From Escherichia phage Ptacy1537, in sequence record PQ863254.1: a DNA stretch of 43,020 bases. One strand, written 5' to 3'. The translations under genes were made by a program, and so were the position numbers. Shown here piece after piece: positions 3,512 to 43,020 of this stretch (position 1 is its first letter; each line of letters starts with the position of its first letter). The notes beneath the pieces were generated by a model that worked only from the letters and a program-made list of their open reading frames with translations, ran no database searches and had not been told where the DNA came from.

Positions 3512-3662
3512 GAGCCTCTATGACCCGTGCACTCCACCAGCCTTACCTGAGGGTGTACTTGACCAGTTAATCATTGAGCAGCACGTCCTGGACCTCTATG
3601 GGACCATCTCAGGCTGCAATGATGACAAGGCTGAAATCAAGAAGCTACTCAGCGGTAAATAG
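3366..3662 (+). CDS. Rz1-like outer-membrane lipoprotein spanin (o-spanin), overlapping Rz in the +1 frame
   Basis: ORF starts inside the Rz gene in another frame and runs past its stop. Hydrophobic signal ends in lipobox LSLTGC; the mature part is Pro-rich (PYVPESLYDPCTPPALPEG). Confidence 0.5.
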   Translation: MLNFKVQNPSWSVFTFATQATIVLYCLLSLTGCGQQTTKYVRVAPYVPESLYDPCTPPALPEGVLDQLIIEQHVLDLYGTISGCNDDKAEIKKLLSGK

Positions 3663-4927
3663 TTGCCCGTTACAGTGCACTCCTCTTCCCGACTGGTGAG
3701 TGTACTGTTGCGGCCCAATTATGGCATAAAATTGTATGACCGGAGCGACCCTCGCGACACCCCTCGCTTCCCCCATAGGCCCTCCGCTTTGCACCATCGT
3801 GGAGCATTGGGCCGCCTCCGGGCACCTGGGCCTGCACTGGCAGGGCCATCATGGGCACCTATCGTGTGAGCTCCTGTAACTCCCTGTGCGACACTGTAGG
3901 CCATCACCGCTACCTACGTATCACCGTCTGGCTAATCGCCAGCCGTAGGGCCGCATAGGGCCATCTATCAGCTACTGGTTATCATCACTACTGCCTTATC
4001 GTTTATCAGAGTCGGACAAGGTAGACTCAAGGGTTATCATAGTCGGTCTGTTTAGCAGAGTGAGTACCATCACTCAGAGATTATAGTGTAGCTGAGTCCT
4101 TACTATAGCCGGGGAGTGAACCAGTGTCAACCCTATCTTATGACTATCTCACTACTCATTGTGTCGGGAGTGTCCTATTGTGTTAGACACGCGCTTAGCG
4201 TGGCTGTGCCCTTCTCTGTGCTCTTCCTATCGTGTGACAAGGGTAAGCCCTATCTCATACCTATCGTGCACTCACATTGCTTTATAGCGGCTCTTATTGT
4301 GTGTACAGGGGCGGGCTATCTGTATCCCTGTTTGCCAGCTCATCACACTGTTAACACATACCGTCTAACCATAGGGATAACCTGAGTCATACCCTACCAG
4401 TGACCTATCATCACACCTATCAAGCTATACACTGTATCCATAGTCTAATCGCCTATGGTAAGCACATAGTGATTCTACCGTTGAATATAAACATATCACA
4501 GATAGTGAGTACCTATCTGTCCACTACTAGCTCCACTGTCTAATCGCCAGTGGCTAACGTCCTATTCGTAGTCCTCCGCTACGCTCCGTACATACTCACT
4601 TCTGATACAGATAGAGAGAATTGTAACATACGTTACTACCTACCTATCCCTACCTGTAAGGCCCATTGCTTCGTTCTGTGCTCATAGAGTATGACGAATC
4701 AAACAGCACAGAGCCTGCACTCACAGTGCCTTAAATATAATCCTATTGAATACATACACTTAGCAATTAATTCGAATTTATTTGCAAATAACGCTTGCGC
4801 TTTTAGTCGGCTATACCCTATCATTCAATCACACCGCAGCAATCAGGCGGCAAGCAGTAAGAAGTACCGCTCTTTAACAATATGGTCATAGTATAGTGTG
4901 TCCTCTCAGGAGTATAGGGGATGATAC
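3663..4927. other. Large non-coding region, probable physical genome-end / terminal region in a circularly opened assembly
   Basis: No credible ORF (only short, overlapping, hydrophobic or low-complexity ORFs). Visibly lower GC, many CCTATC-type short repeats and three CTAATCGCC hairpins. Lies between the lysis cassette and the early promoter, where T7-like genomes have their ends. Confidence 0.5.
3928..4553 (+). repeat. Three hairpins sharing a CTAATCGCC core with different complementary stems
   Basis: 3928-3942 CTGGC-TAATC-GCCAG; 4438-4458 CCATAG-TCTAATCGC-CTATGG; 4533-4553 CCACTG-TCTAATCGC-CAGTGG. Stems are perfect inverted repeats that differ in sequence while the loop core is kept. Confidence 0.6.
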
Positions 4928-5299
4928 ATGACACTAAGCAAAGTACAACAAGCCGCGAACAAACAGGCCCAACGGTTAGCCAAACAGGCAGCCCGACAGG
5001 CCCAGAGTACCACAGAGCGTGCCCGTGCTGTGGCCTTGTGCAAAGCTGGCTCCTCAAAGGCTGGCAAGGCGGAGGCCCGCAGGATGGAGCTTGGAAAGCT
5101 GGCGTATAGTAAGACGGTCGGCGGTATGAATTATGCGGTGGATGCACGCAAGCAGCGCAAGCAGGATAAGCCCGCCGCCGCGAAGTACACTAAGCAAACA
5201 GACTTTGGTACACGTACCGCTACCTACGGTAGCAAGACAGATGCAACGGTTAACAGTTACCGCCGGGCTAAATCAGGCGATAACCTGCCACGTAAATAG
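4928..5299 (+). CDS. Hypothetical basic low-complexity protein (doubtful gene)
   Basis: 123-aa K/R/A/Q-rich ORF upstream of the early promoter. Weak RBS. Could be spurious. Confidence 0.3.
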   Translation: MTLSKVQQAANKQAQRLAKQAARQAQSTTERARAVALCKAGSSKAGKAEARRMELGKLAYSKTVGGMNYAVDARKQRKQDKPAAAKYTKQTDFGTRTATYGSKTDATVNSYRRAKSGDNLPRK

Positions 5300-5312
5300 T
5301 TTAAATAAATGC

Positions 5313-5341
5313 TTGACATTAACGAGGATGCACCATACTAT
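5313..5341 (+). promoter_or_regulatory. Candidate host sigma70-type early promoter
   Basis: TTGACA (5313-5318), 17-nt spacer, TACTAT (5336-5341). Sits upstream of the early gene block on the coding strand. Confidence 0.45.
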
Positions 5342-5868
5342 GACCATACAGACAGCGGAGACCGACACGGCAAACAACGTTAGGTGAGTCTCCAATGTTT
5401 GGGCCTTGCACTCGCAAGCGCTTTTGTGAAAGAGACTTTGATGTACACATTGTGGAAGTACCCAGCACAGAGGAAACTCCGGTGATGGGAAGTGGAAGGT
5501 GCTTAAGTGCGATTGCCACGAGGAACCGCGATGGGGAAGCGTAGTATAGGGACGATAACCCTTTAAAGATATCAGGCCGGGTGAGATGGTAGGTCAGTTA
5601 TAAAATCCATCGATAATAGTGTTTGGCGAGCATTCCCTCCACCGAACGGGAGAAATCGCATCCAGCGTCACTGAGCGGGACAAGTCTCAAACGTATTGGA
5701 TTAACATCTGCTCCTGAGTAGGACGGGTAACGCGGTTAGCGCATGGTGACACTGTGAAGTGGTTCGATGCAATGCTTGACGCCTACCGACGCGAAAGGGA
5801 GCGGGTTAACATATGAGTATTCAATGGTGAGTATTCATACCTTTAACCAAACGATGAGGATTTACAAA

Positions 5869-6429
5869 ATGGCTACTACCAAAACCGCTAAAGCTACCAA
5901 AACCACTTCTGATTTCGTCAAGCTGGCTATGATTCCGGCTGATTTGGATAAGGCGATTGACCGTGTGTGTGTCGCTTCCAAGACGCTGCAATCTGACATC
6001 CACGATGTGGCCGTGGCTATCATGGTTCACACCTACAACCACAACGATTTCAGCAAGGCACAGACCCTTGTCGATGGCCTGGGTGAGGGTGTGCGCCGTG
6101 GTGCTCTGGTTGAGTGGTTCCAGGCCGCAGGTCTGAAGGTAAACGCTGAGGCTGGCGCTTTCTCTGGCTTCAACAAGGCCAAGATGGAAGATAAGTGGGA
6201 TAAGGTTAAATCCACGCCGTGGTATACCATGAAGCCGGAGCGCCCGTTTGCTGGCTTTGACCTGATGGCTGAGCTTGAGCGCCTGCTGTCTAAGGCTGAG
6301 AAGGCGACTAAGAAGAACGCCGACACGCCGGAGGACCAACGTGCTGAGGGTTACACTTTTGTGTGCGATGCCGACAAGCTGGCCGCCCTGCGTGCGATGA
6401 TTCACCCGGCAACGCAGACTGTTAACTAA
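5869..6429 (+). CDS. Early hypothetical protein
   Basis: ATG at 5869 with GAGGA 8 nt upstream (chosen over the 5767 start in the ORF track). 186 aa, no recognised domain. Confidence 0.6.
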   Translation: MATTKTAKATKTTSDFVKLAMIPADLDKAIDRVCVASKTLQSDIHDVAVAIMVHTYNHNDFSKAQTLVDGLGEGVRRGALVEWFQAAGLKVNAEAGAFSGFNKAKMEDKWDKVKSTPWYTMKPERPFAGFDLMAELERLLSKAEKATKKNADTPEDQRAEGYTFVCDADKLAALRAMIHPATQTVN

Positions 6430-6490
6430 GTGCTATCCGCAAGCCTGCTCAATGAGTGGGCTTGATGACTATCACTGAGGAGTTATCACG

Positions 6491-6883
6491 ATGAGCAAAA
6501 CAAAGATTCTTACCTTCCTGCGGGAGTGGTTACAGTATTCCGACGCCTGCATGAAGGCACACAAGGCGGGCGAGGAGAAGCCGCACTCGCAGACGTTCAC
6601 GCCGTATGATGGGTTGTGTGGCAACCTCGACCGCTGGGCGCGTGCTTACGCCCGCCGGGAGCAGCTTAACTTTGATGCGGAGCGCCAATTTAACCGGGGC
6701 TTATGTACGGCGCTGAAAGACCTGTTCCGGGCCGATGGCCTGTGTACCTGTTGGACGTTCGGAGAGCGTAGCTTTAAGATGCGCTTTGACCGGGAGTCTA
6801 ACGCACGGTGCCCTAACCGCCGCCGCTGGGTGAAGAATACTATCGCACAGCTTGAGAAGGAGCTATCCGATGGCAATCACTAA
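6491..6883 (+). CDS. Early hypothetical protein, paralog family member A
   Basis: 130 aa. Shares FL(R/T)xWL...F(T/R)PY(D/T)GLC with the 7166..7489 product. Confidence 0.6.
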   Translation: MSKTKILTFLREWLQYSDACMKAHKAGEEKPHSQTFTPYDGLCGNLDRWARAYARREQLNFDAERQFNRGLCTALKDLFRADGLCTCWTFGERSFKMRFDRESNARCPNRRRWVKNTIAQLEKELSDGNH

Positions 6884-7169
6884 GATATCCTTTCTGGCCC
6901 GCTACCACACGCGGGAAATCAGGGAAGTAATACTATCCCCGTGCTGGCCTACTCTTGAGAAAGAGGTCACGGTACAGCACGATAAAGAGGCCGTGTTCGT
7001 ACTCGGGCCGGGGCCATGTGGCAAGACGGTTGACAAGCTGGATGTACGGTATCAGGAGCACGATATTGTTATCACTCAGTACCACGATGATGGTACACTT
7101 AAAGAATTTGCATACCAGCGCGAAGATGTGCTGGGTCGTATAACTATTGAGCGGAGTGTATTTCAATGA
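6870..7169 (+). CDS. Early hypothetical protein
   Basis: ATG at 6870 preceded by GAGAAGGAG. 99 aa. No recognised domain. Confidence 0.5.
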   Translation: MAITKISFLARYHTREIREVILSPCWPTLEKEVTVQHDKEAVFVLGPGPCGKTVDKLDVRYQEHDIVITQYHDDGTLKEFAYQREDVLGRITIERSVFQ

Positions 7170-7489
7170 CCAAAGAGATGAGAGAGTTTCTCACAGCGTG
7201 GCTTGATTGGGCCACGAGCGGCGACGTTAAAGACCATAAATACGGCTGTATATTCCGCCCGTATACCGGGCTGTGTGCTGCTGCGGATTACTGGACAGTA
7301 GACGATGGCCCGGCGCACTACGAACTCATTAGCGAGTTGGGTGATATGCTGGAAGCCGGTGGGTTGGCCACGGACTATCCTTTTGACACCCCGCGTAGCT
7401 ATGACGCTGCCGCAGAGGCAGGCACACAGCACCTTAACCCGGCCCGCCTGGCGTGGGTACGTGCTAAGCTGGAGGTGTCAGATGAGTGA
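7166..7489 (+). CDS. Early hypothetical protein, paralog family member B
   Basis: 107 aa. EFLTAWLDWA...FRPYTGLCAA parallels TFLREWLQYS...FTPYDGLCGN of 6491..6883. ATGA-type overlap with flanking genes. Confidence 0.6.
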   Translation: MTKEMREFLTAWLDWATSGDVKDHKYGCIFRPYTGLCAAADYWTVDDGPAHYELISELGDMLEAGGLATDYPFDTPRSYDAAAEAGTQHLNPARLAWVRAKLEVSDE

Positions 7490-35530: not shown

Positions 35531-38500
35531 ATGGCTGAGTTTAAAGTAGCGCTAGACAAAAGCACGCCGTATGACGAGATGGCCCGCGCCACCGAGGAGA
35601 AATACGGACTGCCAGAGGGCCTGCTAAAGACCACCCTGCTTATTGAGAACAGAAACAACATCAAGAACCGCGTGTCTCCGAAAGGGGCGCGTGGTATTGG
35701 CCAGATTATGCCTGCCACTGCCCAGGGCTTGGGGTACAAGCCGGAGGATGCAGATGACCCGGTTAAGTCCATTGAGATGATGGGCAAGCTGTACTCCGAG
35801 CTGAATAAAACGTACGATGGCGACGTAGGGGCCATGATGGCCCACTACAACGGCGGTACTGCGGCAGGGTCTGCTTACGTTGAGGGTAAGGGTTTAAACC
35901 CGGAGACGGCGGATTACATCAAGTATGCCGCGCCGTACCTGGAGCAGACTGGTAAACCTTCGAAGTACCAGACTCAACTCCAAGGCGCTATGGACGAAAC
36001 ATTGCTGGGAGAGGCACCGAGCGACACCGCCATCTTCAACGAGACCGAAGGGGATGAGGCGTTCGGCCAGGACCTCTCAGCTAAGTTTGAGAAGCAGCTT
36101 CAGGACGAAGCACAGTTCTTCAACATGTCACTGTGGGAAGCGGCTAAGACCGGCTTCCGCAGCACCATGACCGACGCTATCGCCCATGCGTACTCCCGCG
36201 AGGATGATATCGACTTCAACCTGTCACAGTCGCACTTCGACCGTATCCAGCAGGAGTTCCCGAATGGGCTCGACCAGTCATCAACAGATAGACTTTACAA
36301 CTCTCGAAGCGATTCTGACTTTGAGTTCAACCTCGGACGCGTTAGAGATTCGCAGAAGTTTGCACAGACGCTTGGATTCCAATCTGGCCTCGACAAGTAC
36401 GCAGGTTATGCGGCTACGTTCGCAGGCGGCTTGGCTGACCCTGCGGCCCTGCCAGCAGGCACCTTCGGCCTGGCTGGGCGTGTCATCAAGGGCGGTAGTA
36501 TCGCCGCAAGTGCTAGTCGTATGGCTGTTGAAGGTGCTGTTGGTGGTGCCATTGTGTCGCCGGTTACACAGTTTGCAGACAAGGGCACAGTCTCTGCTGA
36601 GGAGCTCATGGAGAACATGGCAGCGTCTGCGGTCATGTCTACGGCAATCGGTGGAATCCTGTCTCGTGTGGGAAATCCAAAAGGATGGCGCGAGGAAGTT
36701 GATTCCTCGGTCACGGGACGAGTGGATGGCAATCCCGACTTTGTGGGTCCTCAACGACCTAAGCCAGTGGATTCTGATGGTGATGCTGTAGACTTCCGCA
36801 ACGCTACGGACACGTCGGTATCCACAGATGGGGCTGTAAGTGGAGTAGGCCCTACGGCTGTTAAGCGTGCTGCTGCGGAGTGGAACGAAACGCCTGAGAT
36901 TGGCACCGAGGCTATCCAGGCACGCCGCCAGAAGTATTACGGAAGCAAGTGGCGTGAGAAAATCTTCGGGTGGTCTGACTCTGAGGGCGTACGTCTCGCA
37001 ACCTCTAAAAGCAAAATTGCACGGTTCGTCGGCGCTATGTGGGCCGGTAACTCAGGTGCGATTGGCAAGGTAGAGGCACGTACGGCTGCTGTGTTGAAGG
37101 ACCAGCTCAAGGAGCAGCTCGACTTCACCTACATCCCGGCGATGAAGGAGATTTATGAGGGATACCTGACACCAGGCCAGAAGTATGACTACATGGCAGG
37201 CGGCTCTAAGGATGCGCAGCAGGCATTCTCCCGTGAGGTGCAGCTGGAGCGCTACCGCCACCGCGAGTACCGGATGCAGAACGAGAACAGCAGCAAGGGC
37301 TACCAGTCTACCGCCCCGGCGGCTATTCAGCGTGCAGCCAAGCTCCTGGACGACCATTACGCTGACACCAAAGCCATGCACATGCAGGCCCAGACAGAGC
37401 ACGCCGCTCAGCTCAAGGACAGTGACCCCATCGGTTACATTGAGCAGCGCCCGGACTTCGTTAAGCTGCAAAGCTCGGATACGGCGACGCGCAAAGCGTT
37501 CTTGGAAATGGTCAAAGATGACTACCGAGCAGAGGCCCAGGCCAAGATTAACAAGATGCGCGGTGAGCGGGAGGCGTGGATTACTCAGGCGTATAAGCGT
37601 GCTGAGCAAGCGCTAGATGGTCAGAAGGGCGAAGGCAAGCCTGCTAACCCGCTGTGGGTTGACGAGTTCCTCAAGAACCCGGACGCCTACTTCGACAAGC
37701 ATATCTCGCAGCTCTCGAAGAAGATTGCAGCGGAGATGGACAAGCGTGCCAGCCACTGGTGGGATAACGCCCTCAGCGACCCTGAGACGCGCTATCAGAA
37801 CTCAGAGGCCTCCTTGCTTAGCCTGGCCAGAGAGATGTCTGACGAGTGGTTTACGGGACGTGAGGTTGACGCTGAGTTGGTCAAGTCGTTCCAGCAGGCA
37901 CTGACCAGCAAGTGGGCAGACACCTCCCGTCGGGAACTGCGCATGACCAATAGCCGCCAGGTTAACGGTGAGCAGGTGTATCTCCTGGACATGTTCCAGC
38001 ATGATGTATTCGGAACTATGTCGAACAACATCGCAGATACAGCGGGCCGGGTAGCAATGGCTAAGATGGGGTGGAAGACGGAGCAGGATATCGCCGACAC
38101 ACTATCAGCCATGCGTGAGGAGGGTGTGCCTACTCGTGAGCTGGAGGCTGCGAAGCATATCAGTGACCTTATTCTTAACCGCGCACGTGGCCTGGATAAC
38201 AATCCCCTGGTTATGGCTGCGAGCAACATCACCCACGCAGCAATGATGGGTAAGCTCGGTACGTCTATTCTGGCGGACCTGCCAACCATTATCGGCAACC
38301 TCGGCATCGGCGGGATGACCCGCGCCCTAGGTGACATGGCCAAGCAGGTGGTTAACGGGGAGCTGTTCGTTAAGAACGGGCGCAAGACTGCCCTGGGTAA
38401 CGACCTGGACGCATACCTGACAGGTCTGAACGGGCACGACCACGAGCTGTGGATTCCTCAGCAGATTAACGCTGACGGGCAAGCTATGGACATGTCCGGC

Positions 38501-39358
38501 TCAATCCTCCGCCGCTCGGCTGCTGCTGCACGATTCACCAACACCCTCAGCTTCGCTAACGCCATCAGCCGCTCTATAGGCACCGCTGTGACACGCACGA
38601 CCAACAAGTCACTGCACAAGTACCTGCGCACCGGTAAGGGCATCAGTGATGCGCGTATGGTGGATGCAGGCATGTCGGCGAAGCTGCGTCAGCGTATTAA
38701 GGCGCAGTTCGACGCCCACGGCGGCAAGAATGACTTCGGCCTGGATAAGTGGACAGACCCGTATGCGAAGGAGAGCTTCATCTCAATCGCACACCGCTTC
38801 ACTAACCAGAACCGCATCGACCACCAATCAGCAGGAGAACTTCCGAAGTGGACCAGAGACAACATGCTCGGCGTTCTATTTGGCCGTTTCCGTACAATTG
38901 GGATTCGAGCCCAGGAGAAACTTCTTGTCCGAAATTTAACGATGGCAGACAGCAACACCCTGGCAATGTTAACCGCTGGGTTGGCTTTCACTACCTTCCT
39001 GGCATACGGTCGTATCTACTTAGACGCTGCCACCTCGAAGGATGGTGCGAAGGTACTGAAAGACCGTCTTACGCCGATGGGCGTGGCAAATACAGTGACC
39101 CGTCTGTCATCGGTAACTGGCCTAGCCTCGGAGGGTCTTGGCCTGCTGGACTTGATGACTGGTGGCGGAGTCAAGGGCGGCGGTGATACACCGCTTACTG
39201 GAGCTATCGGAAACATTACAGGTGCCCTCGGCGCTACTGGTTCGGCGCTTACCGGTAACGGTGAGTGGTCCCAGGCGGGTGCGGCTTCCTTCAAGTTGCT
39301 TCCCGGTGCAAACACTTATCTTCTGATGGGATTGCAGAAATCTATCAGTGACGACTAA
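35531..39358 (+). CDS. Internal virion protein with N-terminal lytic transglycosylase (SLT) domain (T7 gp16-like)
   Basis: 1275 aa. N-terminal region with LLIENRNN...GARGIGQIMPATAQGLGY...MMAHYNGG matches the SLT/goose-lysozyme-like fold signature, as in T7 gp16. Confidence 0.75.
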   Translation: MAEFKVALDKSTPYDEMARATEEKYGLPEGLLKTTLLIENRNNIKNRVSPKGARGIGQIMPATAQGLGYKPEDADDPVKSIEMMGKLYSELNKTYDGDVGAMMAHYNGGTAAGSAYVEGKGLNPETADYIKYAAPYLEQTGKPSKYQTQLQGAMDETLLGEAPSDTAIFNETEGDEAFGQDLSAKFEKQLQDEAQFFNMSLWEAAKTGFRSTMTDAIAHAYSREDDIDFNLSQSHFDRIQQEFPNGLDQSSTDRLYNSRSDSDFEFNLGRVRDSQKFAQTLGFQSGLDKYAGYAATFAGGLADPAALPAGTFGLAGRVIKGGSIAASASRMAVEGAVGGAIVSPVTQFADKGTVSAEELMENMAASAVMSTAIGGILSRVGNPKGWREEVDSSVTGRVDGNPDFVGPQRPKPVDSDGDAVDFRNATDTSVSTDGAVSGVGPTAVKRAAAEWNETPEIGTEAIQARRQKYYGSKWREKIFGWSDSEGVRLATSKSKIARFVGAMWAGNSGAIGKVEARTAAVLKDQLKEQLDFTYIPAMKEIYEGYLTPGQKYDYMAGGSKDAQQAFSREVQLERYRHREYRMQNENSSKGYQSTAPAAIQRAAKLLDDHYADTKAMHMQAQTEHAAQLKDSDPIGYIEQRPDFVKLQSSDTATRKAFLEMVKDDYRAEAQAKINKMRGEREAWITQAYKRAEQALDGQKGEGKPANPLWVDEFLKNPDAYFDKHISQLSKKIAAEMDKRASHWWDNALSDPETRYQNSEASLLSLAREMSDEWFTGREVDAELVKSFQQALTSKWADTSRRELRMTNSRQVNGEQVYLLDMFQHDVFGTMSNNIADTAGRVAMAKMGWKTEQDIADTLSAMREEGVPTRELEAAKHISDLILNRARGLDNNPLVMAASNITHAAMMGKLGTSILADLPTIIGNLGIGGMTRALGDMAKQVVNGELFVKNGRKTALGNDLDAYLTGLNGHDHELWIPQQINADGQAMDMSGSILRRSAAAARFTNTLSFANAISRSIGTAVTRTTNKSLHKYLRTGKGISDARMVDAGMSAKLRQRIKAQFDAHGGKNDFGLDKWTDPYAKESFISIAHRFTNQNRIDHQSAGELPKWTRDNMLGVLFGRFRTIGIRAQEKLLVRNLTMADSNTLAMLTAGLAFTTFLAYGRIYLDAATSKDGAKVLKDRLTPMGVANTVTRLSSVTGLASEGLGLLDLMTGGGVKGGGDTPLTGAIGNITGALGATGSALTGNGEWSQAGAASFKLLPGANTYLLMGLQKSISDD

Positions 39359-39424: not shown

Positions 39425-41680
39425 ATGGACAAGTCTACCCTTGAATGGATGACGTCGGATTCTACAGAACCAGATTACCTTACTATGGTTACGTACACTG
39501 CCGACGGCACTACGGACCAATACGAGTTTAACTTCCCAGGTGGCTACCTGAACAAGGCGGACATTAAAGCGTACATGTTCGACCCAGCAGGCGTTGTCCG
39601 TACGGACCTTACTGTAGCGTTCATTGCTGACAACATTGTTAAGCTGACCCCGGAACAGGCGGCCGGTAACTTAGTCACCATCTACCGCGACACTCCAAAA
39701 GAGCTGCCGCTGGTTAGCTTTACCGACGGCGCTATGATTGAGGCTCGCAACCTTGACCGTAACGCAAAGCAGTGTATCTTCGCCGTCGCTGAAATCCTGG
39801 ACAAGTACAATATCGTGTACAGCCAGGTAGAGCTGGCGGAGCGATATGCAACTATTGCCCGAGACGCGGCGGATACCGCAACAACCCAGGCCGAGTTCGT
39901 CGCCTACATTTACGAGCGGTTTAAGATTACCGACGAGATGATGGCGGAGATTAACCGTGCACGTGATGACGCGCAGTTTGCAGCAGGCCGGTCCGAGCAG
40001 GCCCAAGACGCCGCTGAGCGTGCGCGTGATGCAACGGAAGCTCTGGCCACAAGTGCTGGAATCTTCCAGTCTATTGCAGCGGGCCTTGCAGGCACCTCCA
40101 CCGGCCAATACTTCACGGTAGGGCAGGGTGTGGATTCCGAGACGGCTGCCATCACGTACCTGAACGACAACGGTACGGCTGTGCCTGTATTCAAGACGGC
40201 GGGTACTCAGGCGTATGTAAACCTGAATAAGAGGTTTATGGACGTATTCCTGGAAGGCACCTACGGTAACGCACTCGCCGGTTTCGTGGATGACGAGGAC
40301 AACTCGCCGCTGTTTATCGACGACAAGGGCGAGGTCGTAATCAATGACATCAACTTCCTGAAACAGGTGCAGGACATCATTAACGAATTGGTAGCAATTC
40401 GTAACGTGTTCATCTCTGAATCAGACAGCTACATCCAGAAGGGTGGATTCATGGATGATGAAGGCAAGCTGCCTATCTACTTCGACGAGAAGGGTGATGT
40501 GTGGCTGGGAGATGGCCCGGTTAACCTGACTCAGTTCGTAAAAGAGGGCGACCCCGTTCTGGCTAACCGCGTGCTGGCTTTAGAAACTCAGTATGCACGC
40601 CTGAATGATAAGTTCTTCGAGGCGGATTCAGACTACAGCCAGGTAGCAGGCTTCGTTGATGATGAAGGCAAGCTGCCCCTGTATGTGGACAAGTTTGGTG
40701 ATGTTTGGATTGGCGCAGGTCCGGTTAACCTTAGCGAGTTCGTTAAGAGCGGCGGCGGCATTCCTTCTGAAGAGTTCACTGCATTGAAGGCGCAGGTGGC
40801 CAACCACGAGCGTGCCATCTATGGAACGGGCAACATCGTCTGCGAAGGCGATTCCCTGACTGCCGGTGCCGGTGCGGTATCCCGTACTGGTTATGTAGAG
40901 CGCCTTCGTGCCCGCCTACAGTCCCAGGGCATTGTGGTGACTAAGCGTGCAGTCGGAGGCACGGGCTCTGCATCCATCGCAACCCGACAGGGTGGTTATG
41001 TTAACCTGCTGACGCTGGAGAATAACAGCATCCCAGCTGCCCGCGTCCCGGTTAATATCCTGTCCAGTACGCAAACACCAATCACCAACCAAGGCGGTGG
41101 CCCTATCAAGGGTACTATAATGGGTATTCCTGGTGTAGTTGCTGCTACCTTCTCGGGAACTGAGCGTACCTCCTACACCTTCACTCGCGACGTGGCAGGC
41201 ACCGTGGCCACCTACGTGGACCCGGAGACCCCGTTCATCAAACAGCGGGATGGTATGGAGGGCGACATCGCTATCCTGTGGCCGGGCCGCAACGACACAT
41301 GGCGCACCGATATGGGTGACGAGGTAATGAATGCGGTTGACGCGATGGTGGCTCACCTGGTATCCCAGCGTAAGCAGTTCGTCGTAATGTCCGTGCTCAA
41401 CGGTGAGTATGTTAACGAGTACAAAGGCGGGCCAGTATACGACCGCATCCTGGGCTATAACAACCGCCTCAAGTATAAGTACCCGGAGCAGTATTGCGAG
41501 ATTCGTAATGTCCTGGTACGTGCATACGACCCAAGCAAACCGCAGGACGTGCTAGACTTCCAGCATGATATCCCACCAGCCAGCCTGCGTGCGGACGGCA
41601 TTCACCTGCTGGACCCTGGCTACGACATCGTTGAAGAGACTGTGTATACCCATCTCAAGAACAGAGGATTAGTTAAATAA
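39425..41680 (+). CDS. Tail fibre protein: T7 gp17-like N-terminal adaptor domain, three internal repeats, C-terminal SGNH/GDSL hydrolase domain
   Basis: N-terminus (LVSFTDGAMIEARNLD) parallels T7 gp17 (LVDFTDGSILRAYDLN). Three 68-aa repeats (GF(V/M)DDEGKLP...GDVW(I/L)G.GPVNL..FVK). C-terminal IVCEGDSLTAGAG ... DGIHL matches the SGNH esterase catalytic Ser block and Asp-x-x-His block. Confidence 0.75.
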   Translation: MDKSTLEWMTSDSTEPDYLTMVTYTADGTTDQYEFNFPGGYLNKADIKAYMFDPAGVVRTDLTVAFIADNIVKLTPEQAAGNLVTIYRDTPKELPLVSFTDGAMIEARNLDRNAKQCIFAVAEILDKYNIVYSQVELAERYATIARDAADTATTQAEFVAYIYERFKITDEMMAEINRARDDAQFAAGRSEQAQDAAERARDATEALATSAGIFQSIAAGLAGTSTGQYFTVGQGVDSETAAITYLNDNGTAVPVFKTAGTQAYVNLNKRFMDVFLEGTYGNALAGFVDDEDNSPLFIDDKGEVVINDINFLKQVQDIINELVAIRNVFISESDSYIQKGGFMDDEGKLPIYFDEKGDVWLGDGPVNLTQFVKEGDPVLANRVLALETQYARLNDKFFEADSDYSQVAGFVDDEGKLPLYVDKFGDVWIGAGPVNLSEFVKSGGGIPSEEFTALKAQVANHERAIYGTGNIVCEGDSLTAGAGAVSRTGYVERLRARLQSQGIVVTKRAVGGTGSASIATRQGGYVNLLTLENNSIPAARVPVNILSSTQTPITNQGGGPIKGTIMGIPGVVAATFSGTERTSYTFTRDVAGTVATYVDPETPFIKQRDGMEGDIAILWPGRNDTWRTDMGDEVMNAVDAMVAHLVSQRKQFVVMSVLNGEYVNEYKGGPVYDRILGYNNRLKYKYPEQYCEIRNVLVRAYDPSKPQDVLDFQHDIPPASLRADGIHLLDPGYDIVEETVYTHLKNRGLVK

Positions 41681-42453
41681 TGGGCAATTTCATCAAGATT
41701 GGCACCACCCTGACCAACCCGAACATCACCAAGCTGACTCGGGATTCACTCATTGATGCCAACACCGTATTTATTGCGGACCTGAGCCGCAAGGCATCCA
41801 ACCCGGCGCAGGTGGACCTGTCCAACGGCAATCTTCTGTATAACCTGACTAACGGTGGCCTAAACGCCACCACCATCACGGGCACTAAGATTCCGTTCTC
41901 TGCGGCGGGTAAATATCTCACCAAAGAGGTTGGCGATATCTCGTCCCGTATCCAGCTGCCGGACACCTGTAAGGTGCTCGCTACCGACAACAGCTTCCAG
42001 TTTACCCTGTGGTTTACTGAGCTGGCCGGACAGGATACTACGGGCTCTCAGGGTCTGGCAGGATACGCATCAAACTCCAGCAACCAGATGGCCTTCGCGT
42101 TCTACTGGTTCGATGGCCAGTATTTCCTGGGTTGTGCGGGGAACCGGCACCCAATCGCAACACCTGCTGTAGGCGCAGTAAGCCAGTTGACGGTGGCCTG
42201 TGACCGTAATCTGGGAATCCGTAAGTATTACTACAACGGGGCCCTAGTGCGTTCTGAGACCAATCAGGTTATCAATGATATGCCTATTCCGGTAGCTGGT
42301 TCTAACCCGTGGCTGTTCTACCTGGGCGGTGGCTTCAACTCCCGCCGCAACGTTAAGCTGCACCGTGTATGGTTGGATGTAAACGGCCCCGGCGATAACT
42401 TTGACGCCAAAGTAGTTCGCGACTGGAACGAGAACAAACTTAAATTCGTATAA
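41680..42453 (+). CDS. Hypothetical tail-associated protein (possible lectin-like or receptor-binding accessory protein)
   Basis: 257-aa ORF, TAATG-coupled to the tail fibre gene. Composition suggests a beta-rich fold. No firm domain call. Confidence 0.5.
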   Translation: MGNFIKIGTTLTNPNITKLTRDSLIDANTVFIADLSRKASNPAQVDLSNGNLLYNLTNGGLNATTITGTKIPFSAAGKYLTKEVGDISSRIQLPDTCKVLATDNSFQFTLWFTELAGQDTTGSQGLAGYASNSSNQMAFAFYWFDGQYFLGCAGNRHPIATPAVGAVSQLTVACDRNLGIRKYYYNGALVRSETNQVINDMPIPVAGSNPWLFYLGGGFNSRRNVKLHRVWLDVNGPGDNFDAKVVRDWNENKLKFV

Positions 42454-42459
42454 GGACCT

Positions 42460-42648
42460 GTGATGTGGCTGATTGATGACCTCCTGGACCGGGCGGGGCC
42501 CCTTCCGGGGGTCACGGTATCCGGTGTTACTCTGTTAGGGCTTAACCTACAGACTACGGTGTATGTTCTTACTATCGTATACCTGGTACTGCAAATTGGC
42601 CGCTTTATTTGGAAGTGGCTTGACGAATGGAGAGGTAAAGATGACTGA
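42460..42648 (+). CDS. Putative holin (pinholin candidate)
   Basis: 62 aa. Hydrophobic segment VTLLGLNLQTTVYVLTIVYLVLQIGRFIW followed by a charged C-terminus. Lies just before small terminase, as T7 gp17.5 does. Confidence 0.5.
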   Translation: MMWLIDDLLDRAGPLPGVTVSGVTLLGLNLQTTVYVLTIVYLVLQIGRFIWKWLDEWRGKDD

Positions 42649-43020
42649 CTTCGAAGACGACCTGCCTGAGAAGTCCCCGGACGAGCTCGACAAGATTGCT
42701 GAACAGGAGAAGAAGGATGCTGAGTTCCTCGAAAGACTGTCCAACATGTCTAACGAAGAGTTAGCCAAGCTCCTCCTGAATAATTCCCTGAAGCAGCTCC
42801 TGGTTACTATAAACAAGGGCTGGGCCACTGCGTCGGATATAAACACCGCCCGACAGTTTCTCAAGGACAACAACATCGGCATTGTACCTACCCGCAGTAA
42901 TGCTGCTGGGGCCCTCCAGAAGAAGCTCAAAGAACGTGCAGATGCTGCAAAGGACGGGGCACACCATAACGTTGCTGACCTCGACAACGTGGGTATCGAT
43001 GACTTTATTCAGAGGCACTA
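42641..43020 (+). CDS. Terminase small subunit (T7 gp18-like), 3'-truncated at the window end
   Basis: ATG at 42641 opens a frame with no stop before the window end. The pattern resembles the remembered T7 gp18. Probably continues across the circular junction towards position 1. Confidence 0.5.
   Translation, partial: MTDFEDDLPEKSPDELDKIAEQEKKDAEFLERLSNMSNEELAKLLLNNSLKQLLVTINKGWATASDINTARQFLKDNNIGIVPTRSNAAGALQKKLKERADAAKDGAHHNVADLDNVGIDDFIQRH

Follow-up and report, generated by a model that had tools for sequence, protein, structure and literature searches.

The tail fibre gene of Escherichia phage Ptacy1537 (sequence record PQ863254.1; the whole analysed stretch of 43,020 nucleotides (nt) is referred to as the window) encodes a protein with a C-terminal head that, judged from its sequence and its predicted structure, is likely to be a carbohydrate acetyl esterase that is active and either constitutes the receptor-binding device of the phage or forms part of it. 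The gene is a single open reading frame (ORF) on the plus strand, which spans exactly the positions 39425–41680 and codes for a product of 751 amino acids (aa). A preliminary description, made from the letters of the window, had proposed a receptor-binding fibre that de-esterifies the surface polysaccharide instead of cutting its backbone. This proposal is supported in silico, as every test that could be computed, i.e., the fold, the conserved residues and the homology to Salmonella phage epsilon15 gp20, agrees with it. The basis is the domain composition, the fold, the residue conservation and the homology to a proven enzyme, and from these we infer the trimer state, the substrate, the host and the consequence for infection. 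The coordinates of all features are collected in Table 1.

Fold and catalytic residues of the head

The preliminary description had read an SGNH signature in the C-terminal region, made up of a GDSLTAG block, later glycine and asparagine blocks and a terminal DGIHL block (aa 724–728), and all of these are present and conserved in 46 homologues. In these sequences, reaching down to 21% identity, G475, D476, S477, G621, N623 and H727 are invariant and G511, G512 and D724 are conserved to at least 90%, so that the catalytic serine, aspartate and histidine are retained on proper alignment. The structure prediction and structure search that the preliminary description had recommended resulted in a confident SGNH fold with matches to GDSL esterases and tailspikes. 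In the AlphaFold2 model, computed with the 46-sequence alignment, the head (aa 468–751) shows predicted local distance difference test (pLDDT) values of 93–98, and Foldseek against the PDB returned GDSL-like esterases of three-layer alpha/beta/alpha fold at a probability of 1.00 and with target template modelling (TM) scores of 0.65–0.80. The matches include sialate O-acetylesterases, an acetyl-xylan esterase and the carbohydrate esterase PbeAcXE and, more weakly, the esterase tailspikes of Shigella phages Moo19 and B2 (9d81 with an expect value (E) of 8e-3; 9d84, E 2e-3). Moreover, the head matches PHROG 11419 (E 8e-47). Between G512 and G621, which are separated by approximately 110 aa, the model contains the six strands of an antiparallel barrel (aa 527–531, 543–548, 561–565, 568–577, 580–588 and 602–606). 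Foldseek also matches PatB; a reading as acyltransferase was dropped because the virion tip is without an acetyl-donor partner and because the nearest relative is a hydrolase.

Relationship to the epsilon15 petal domain

By sequence, the closest solved relatives of the head are the PDB entries 9sij and 9sim, titled "Tail spike protein" (E 7e-11 with the single sequence; E 4.4e-35 with a profile of 34 homologues). In a tblastn search the matching protein region was the C-terminus of Salmonella phage epsilon15 gp20, and the homology to this petal type extends over the whole head. A preprint, in which no PDB codes are cited, reported crystal structures for the petal domain of gp20 and for gp20(248–1070) (bioRxiv 10.64898/2026.07.31.742079); 9sij and 9sim are presumably these structures, as the construct lengths are compatible with the two chains. 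It was shown that the SGNH core of the petal domain is interrupted by a six-stranded beta-barrel (residues 826–906), barrel and core forming an oligosaccharide-binding groove, and that the domain takes the 6-O-acetyl group off the O-antigen galactose, as seen by nuclear magnetic resonance, the exchanges S787A and H1038A abolishing activity (bioRxiv 10.64898/2026.07.31.742079).

In an alignment guided by a hidden Markov model (HMM), G512, N623, D724 and H727 of the window protein fall exactly on G813, N937, D1035 and H1038 of epsilon15. Both proteins share the SGNH subfamily, with approximately 32% identity in the part aligned by tblastn (aa 97–262 of the 286-aa head query), the beta-barrel insertion between blocks II and III and the position of the SGNH domain at the C-terminal end of a receptor-binding protein. 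They differ in block I, which reads GDS in the window head and GHS in epsilon15 and in Pectobacterium phage PEAT2, and in what carries the head: in epsilon15 the petal sits on a beta-helix endorhamnosidase tailspike, whereas in the window it belongs to a coiled-coil/hairpin fibre with a T7-type adaptor. The AlphaFold2 model of the window fibre contains no beta-helix, and Pfam found no glycosidase domain in it.

Proposed mechanism

The fibre is presumed to be a homotrimer, as suggested by T7 gp17 and by the coiled-coil prediction. Its N-terminal 130–140 aa would attach it to the tail in the manner of T7 gp17. Next would come a helical shaft and then three hairpin-plus-helix units acting as a neck. 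Each chain would end in a monomer-like SGNH esterase head, three heads being presented. Within the head, Ser477 would act as nucleophile with Asp724 and His727 completing the triad, Gly512 and Asn623 would form the oxyanion hole stabilising the oxyanion, and the barrel between blocks II and III together with the catalytic core may form a sugar-binding groove comparable to that of the epsilon15 petal. On a Klebsiella-like host, the head could bind capsule or O-antigen that is O-acetylated and remove acetyl groups. The outcome would be a specific, reversible attachment and a local remodelling of the polysaccharide without depolymerisation, for which no halo is expected, comparable to gp41 of Acinetobacter phage Aristophanes. 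Distal fibre and a translationally coupled lectin-like partner would form one exchangeable specificity cassette. Among the window ORFs of at least 250 aa there is no other candidate for a fibre or spike besides 39425–41680, and, this being the sole fibre, the host range should depend on the recognition of capsule or O-antigen in acetylated form.

Table 1. Features of the tail fibre gene and of its surroundings in the window
Feature	Position	Strand	Evidence and remarks
Tail fibre gene	39425..41680	+	ORF list; flanked by internal virion protein with SLT domain (35531–39358) and holin
T7 gp17-type N-terminal tail-attachment adaptor, aa 1–~139	39425..39841	+	Pfam PF03906, PDB adaptor matches, nt identity
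Shaft (predicted): long helices aa 112–209, small beta domain aa 229–259, helix aa 261–277	39758..40255	+	AlphaFold2 secondary structure, low to moderate confidence
Hairpin-plus-helix unit 1, type A, aa 284–338, GFVDDEDNSPLFIDDKGEVVIN...	40274..40438	+	Motif HMM, 56 bits
Hairpin-plus-helix unit 2, type B, extra lineage-specific 68-aa copy, aa 339–406	40439..40642	+	46% aa identity to unit 3; absent from P0004–P0013
Hairpin-plus-helix unit 3, type B, ortholog of the one type-B unit in other homologues, aa 407–466	40643..40822	+	Scores against P0004, P0005 and P0007
SGNH/GDSL esterase head (predicted), epsilon15 petal type, aa 468–751	40826..41677	+	pLDDT, Foldseek, 9sij/9sim profile, PHROG
Block I GDSLTAG, aa 475–481, putative nucleophile Ser477	40847..40867	+	G475, D476 and S477 invariant in 46 sequences
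Block II G511-G512, putative oxyanion hole (motif AVGG, aa 509–512)	40955..40960	+	Nearly invariant; G512 on epsilon15 G813
Beta-barrel subdomain between blocks II and III, aa ~527–606	41003..41242	+	AlphaFold2 strands; aligns with epsilon15 barrel 826–906
Block III GRND, aa 621–624, Asn623	41285..41296	+	G621 and N623 invariant; N623 on epsilon15 N937
Block V DGIH, aa 724–727, Asp724 and His727	41594..41605	+	H727 invariant; D724 at least 90%; on epsilon15 D1035 and H1038
Partner gene, 257 aa, stand-alone, ConA/LamG-like lectin fold predicted	41680..42453	+	TAATG overlap, linkage, family profile
Exchanged host-range cassette (putative), distal fibre and partner, ~2.6 kb	39842..42451	+	nt identity boundaries

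The partner gene and its linkage to the head

The gene downstream of the fibre, which the preliminary description had overlooked, is tightly coupled to it, its ATG starting on the last base of the TAA stop codon of the fibre gene. In 10 of 11 contexts, on unrelated podo-, sipho- and myovirus backbones, a homologue of this partner directly follows a petal-type head, and most of the linked contexts share the stop/start overlap of both genes. The linked contexts comprise a T7-like sister contig (L003), two phages of ~62–71 kb that resemble SU10 (L004, L010), a phage carrying a Cap_depo adaptor (L005), a prophage whose baseplate is of Mu type (L007), a tail module similar to those of siphoviruses (L008), a genome of Pseudomonas helleri (L009), two contigs to which distant partner-family members led (L011, L012) and the cultured Pectobacterium myovirus PEAT2 (gp54/gp55; partner HMM E 1e-32). 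Exceptions are epsilon15, which is without a lectin-like partner gene and has a terminator after gp20, and Stenotrophomonas phage C121, in which the match is only marginal.

The partner family forms 72 clusters at 50% identity, nearly all of 247–289 aa. Pfam Laminin_G_3 (PF13385) matches 20 of 56 family members (best E 2.4e-10) and Pfam gave no match for the window partner itself. With a narrow partner profile (A3) the PDB gave no match, and a broader one (A4) matched the pentraxin PTX3 (E 8.5e-5), NTNHA and carbohydrate-binding modules of sialidases. The AlphaFold2 model of the partner is poor (pLDDT 54; predicted TM score 0.62), and with this low-confidence model Foldseek returned only lectin-type beta-sandwiches at TM scores of ~0.4. 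Taken at this level of modelling, the partner is a putative protein of ConA/LamG-like lectin fold that could serve, e.g., as a fibre-bound lectin subunit or as an assembly factor. A tblastn search with the partner against 50,697 GenBank phage records gave no match at E <= 0.01, and PEAT2 gp55 was later recovered by the HMM. Among cultured phages, both halves were found in PEAT2 only, gp55 overlapping the end of gp54.

It can tentatively be proposed, as a possibility that we hold somewhat below even, that petal-type SGNH heads form an obligate two-protein unit with this ~260-aa ConA/LamG-like protein, the latter docking on the conserved hairpin-plus-helix neck either as a lectin subunit carried in the virion or as a factor dedicated to assembly, and that this unit is a mobile cassette of podo-, sipho- and myoviruses. 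If such a two-protein unit exists, an additional neck unit that is found in the lineage of the window could provide an added docking site or reach. An SGNH fibre, gp21, and a ConA-like gp22 were mentioned in passing for Acinetobacter phages fLi-Aba02/03 (PMC11058221), and a full-text literature search found no paper treating the pair of head and partner as a unit.

In the prophage with the Mu-type baseplate (L007, a Logan contig of SRR18507799), the SGNH protein and the partner (3624–7375) lie behind a 283-aa protein and a Caudo_TAP chaperone gene. As far as this gene order goes, the phage would carry a second fibre set beside a standard fibre-plus-chaperone pair. The locus abuts host genes for GH3 and a SIS regulator.

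Alternative readings of the head

Several observations weigh against the head being an active acetyl esterase that is decisive for infection. Pfam GDSL_2 (PF13472) reaches 30.5 bits in the fibre, 2.4 below its cut-off of 32.9, and PF00657 reaches 14.7 bits at a cut-off of 23.6; among the homologues, P0005 and P0012 pass the gathering threshold. The shortfall of PF13472 is attributed to the ~110-aa barrel insertion, which splits the match, and the SGNH assignment is therefore based on profile, fold and motifs and not on Pfam alone. Moreover, the epsilon15 esterase is slow and apparently dispensable beside the endorhamnosidase (bioRxiv 10.64898/2026.07.31.742079), so that even strong homology is no proof of deacetylation being a key step of infection here. 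Finally, shaft and neck are modelled poorly (pLDDT 33–69), since one chain of the presumed trimer was modelled alone, and we infer the quaternary arrangement.

The tight linkage of head and partner also allows for a different distribution of roles, in which the true adhesin would be the downstream lectin-like protein docked on the fibre neck, the SGNH head acting only as an accessory remodeller that clears or edits the glycan. The association in 10 of the 11 contexts, with both proteins being swapped together, is in accordance with this, as are the ConA/LamG lectin signatures of the partner family, its N-terminus, which is conserved like a docking peptide (consensus LPKLxRD; D22 and D34 invariant), and the dispensability of the epsilon15 esterase. 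However, the partner is only a candidate virion component and its model is poor (pLDDT 54), and the groove of the epsilon15 petal domain binds oligosaccharide, showing that a head of this type can bind sugar alone. We therefore regard this distribution of roles as unlikely, although it deserves to be taken seriously.

As a further alternative, the head might be an esterase for a non-carbohydrate or non-acetyl ester, i.e., outer-membrane lipids or lipid A acyl chains, as lipase or lysophospholipase, or for O-acetylated peptidoglycan. The Pfam family carries the name GDSL lipase/acylhydrolase, Foldseek also matches the thioesterase/lysophospholipase TesA and PAF acetylhydrolase, and some sources label homologues 'lysophospholipase L1-like esterase'. 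This reading is nevertheless improbable, as the only close relative of solved structure, which carries the same sugar-binding barrel, has been proven to be an O-antigen acetyl esterase, as every characterised phage SGNH receptor-binding protein deacetylates polysaccharide and as the distal tip of a fibre meets capsule or O-antigen first. Less probable still, and hardly to be expected, is a catalytically dead, lectin-only module that keeps the SGNH fold: the catalytic serine is 12 Å away from the nearest acetyl ester in the epsilon15 complex (bioRxiv 10.64898/2026.07.31.742079), but all five catalytic and oxyanion residues are present here and invariant or nearly so down to 21% identity, which points to selection on catalysis.

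Exchange of the cassette among related phages

The likely carbohydrate acetyl esterase head and the partner are also bounded together at the nucleotide level. The 89–90% nt identity to the Klebsiella phages K59PH2 and 6937 stops at 39774–39841, inside the adaptor, and returns at 42452 (K59PH2, 88%) and at 42463 (6937, 73%), i.e., at the junction of partner and holin, so that distal fibre and partner must have been swapped together, as a single stretch of ~2.6 kb. The guanine-cytosine profile shows no compositional break at the cassette, so that composition gives no evidence of a recent import.

At the partner position, K59PH2 carries an ORF of 253 aa (L001 5877–6638) and 6937 an ORF of 256 aa (L002 6074–6844), with no sequence similarity detectable between the two. 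They were considered as distant homologues of the window partner, and the idea of one family was dropped as BLASTP, HMM and hhalign found nothing. The ORF of 6937 gives a weak hint of Laminin_G_3 (E 0.07). Both ORFs may be analogous, fibre-specific partners of the same fold.

In K59PH2, too, the fibre has a C-terminal GDSL/SGNH domain (L001 3877–5874), which passes the PF13472 threshold with 46.5 bits and scores only 6.7 bits with the HMM of the window head. By these scores, the K59PH2 head is assigned to a different SGNH lineage, and the presence of two lineages suggests that esterase fibres were acquired at least twice in this phage group. The record of K59PH2 (OY757063.1; L001 3501–5877) splits the fibre into a 'tail protein' of 124 aa and a 'tail fiber protein' of 666 aa; these two annotated ORFs align to overlapping parts of the window fibre (aa 1–117 and aa 84–370), suggesting either a frameshift or sequencing error in the record or a genuinely split fibre.

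Adaptor and neck units

The N-terminal attachment domain of T7 gp17 type that had been proposed in the preliminary description was recovered: PF03906, the N-terminal domain of the T7 tail fibre, matches aa 20–127 with 43.8 bits at a cut-off of 25.2, and a sequence search of the PDB returned the phage tail adaptor chains 9s0y and 9m4c. In agreement with such an adaptor, the fibre gene follows the internal virion proteins in a T7-like genome.

For the region between shaft and head, three 68-aa repeats, recently duplicated, had been described. The repetition at the nucleotide level holds: the 20-mer GATGATGAAGGCAAGCTGCC is found in exact form at both 40454 and 40658, i.e., at a distance of 204 nt (0.01 occurrences being expected by chance), within a direct repeat of 131 nt (40429–40559 versus 40633–40763; 70% identity at the same spacing). 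Three units are present as well, each predicted by AlphaFold2 to consist of two to three short strands followed by a helix, and two of them are clearly alike. The uniform length of 68 aa does not hold, as the motif GF(V/M)DDE begins at aa 286, 341 and 409, giving spacings of 55 and 68 aa, and the first copy differs from the others. Units 2 and 3 are identical in 31 of 68 aa (46%), with a local score of 169 compared to 24 +/- 5 for shuffled sequences, and unit 1 shares 13–15 of 68 aa with them (scores of 67–82; top shuffle score 53). Unit 1 is thus classed by sequence as a distinct subtype, type A (...SPLFI..G.V.IN.INF), and units 2 and 3 as type B (...GKLPLY.D..GDVWLG.GPVNL). Tandem Repeats Finder did not report the neck array in the fibre gene, the copies being too divergent, and BLASTP of the fibre against itself gave the self-match only; for this reason the repeats were established by motif anchoring, shuffled sequences and a motif HMM.

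The motif HMM detected two units in nearly all close homologues (P0004–P0013), one of type A and one of type B, type A occurring once in nearly all homologues, and three units only in the lineage with the T7 adaptor (window and P0001–P0003). In every homologue the length of the head is constant, with 274–276 aa from the GDS motif to the end, and one type-B unit lies 58–60 aa before GDS, a slot that is occupied by unit 3 in the window. Furthermore, unit 3 scores 176–188 against the single unit of P0004, P0005 and P0007, and unit 2 scores 116–139. Unit 2 is accordingly an extra 68-aa insertion that arose by a lineage-specific tandem duplication. As to the preliminary description, the tandem duplication is real and comprises one extra unit; it is not recent, since it is common to homologues that are 71–92% identical to the window fibre and since the copies have diverged to 46% aa identity.

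Comparison with other SGNH receptor-binding proteins

A fibre combining a T7-type adaptor with an SGNH domain is of a kind already described, and for specialists it is ordinary. An N-terminal domain of T7 type fused to an SGNH deacetylase was found in Pectobacterium phages Q19, PP47 and PP81 (PMC7693777), and gp41 of Acinetobacter phage Aristophanes is a proven K26 capsule deacetylase and the sole receptor-binding protein of this phage, which causes no depolymerisation halo (PMC8471582). These fibres share with the window the combination of an Autographiviridae particle-binding N-terminal domain and an SGNH deacetylase obtained via horizontal exchange. In contrast to the window, their SGNH domains belong to the type of G7C gp63.1 or to another SGNH lineage and not to the epsilon15 petal type, and neither a hairpin-plus-helix neck nor a linked lectin gene was reported for them. 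The N4-like esterase tailspikes E. coli phage G7C gp63.1, Shigella phage Moo19 gp82 and B2 gp48/49 are likewise SGNH proteins deacetylating O-antigen, but their spike architecture differs and they are attached through a branched adaptor (gp66); the PDB profile search with the head gave no sequence-level match to them.

In Klebsiella, the host genus of the closest cultured relatives of the window, the C-terminal SGNH heads of the fibres of prophages 164_08-KL2 and 174_38-KL55 are proven p-nitrophenyl acetate esterases and proposed capsule deacetylases (PMC13123978). These fibres are of temperate myo/sipho type, unlike that of the window. Among Klebsiella phages, receptor-binding proteins of SGNH type are now considered to be common (PMC13123978; bioRxiv 10.64898/2026.05.12.724579). 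The nearest counterpart to the pair of head and partner is Pectobacterium phage PEAT2 (NC_044940), in which gp54 ends in a petal-type head (27% identity) and gp55 belongs to the partner family; its context is a myovirus baseplate, unlike in the window, and both proteins are annotated as hypothetical. A petal-type head, at 24–33% identity, also occurs in tail fibre or minor tail proteins of Rhodococcus phages ReqiPoco6 and ReqiPepy6 and of Gordonia, Arthrobacter and Clavibacter phages, suggesting that the module crosses the divide between Gram-negative and Gram-positive hosts.

The window fibre, a further member of this known kind, is set apart by a petal head on a fibre and not on a beta-helix spike, by the extra neck unit and by the linked lectin-like gene. 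SGNH esterase fibres are increasingly recognised as an alternative to depolymerases for the recognition of capsule or O-antigen, especially in Klebsiella phages; they produce no halo and are missed by host-range prediction based on depolymerases. The present example adds a lytic T7-like phage with a petal-type esterase as its only receptor-binding protein, an exchangeable unit bounded at the nucleotide level and a tightly linked lectin-like partner gene that had not been investigated as belonging to the unit. Should the partner belong to the adsorption device, prediction and engineering of host range would have to move both genes together. The conserved cassette of head and partner is a modest but real lead.

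Genome setting

The window is a T7-like genome of ~43 kb with the gene order RNA polymerase, portal, capsid, tail tube, internal virion proteins, fibre and holin, and it shares 86–88% nt identity over most of its length with the Klebsiella phages vB_Kpl_K59PH2, KYP and 6937 (Autographiviridae, Melnykvirinae). The slot of the fibre gene between the internal virion protein with SLT domain and the holin, a layout that is the same in the relatives, corresponds to the T7-like tail-fibre position. An exact-sequence look-up of the fibre protein returned no record, its close relatives come from metagenomic assemblies only, and a tblastn search with the head among the 50,697 GenBank phage records found none more than ~33% identical.

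The internal virion protein upstream of the fibre (35531–39358, plus strand, 1275 aa) carries an N-terminal SLT lytic transglycosylase domain (aa 17–113; E 5e-12), comparable to T7 gp16, and is ~90% nt identical to the relatives right up to the fibre adaptor. A scan for promoters and terminators gave counts at or below the shuffle mean. The window starts exactly at the ATG of the large terminase subunit (1–1914, 637 aa), and its end (42650–43020) corresponds to the small-terminase/DNA-packaging gene of the sister contig L003. With terminase genes at both ends, the window looks like a complete, circularly permuted genome assembly and not like a fragment.

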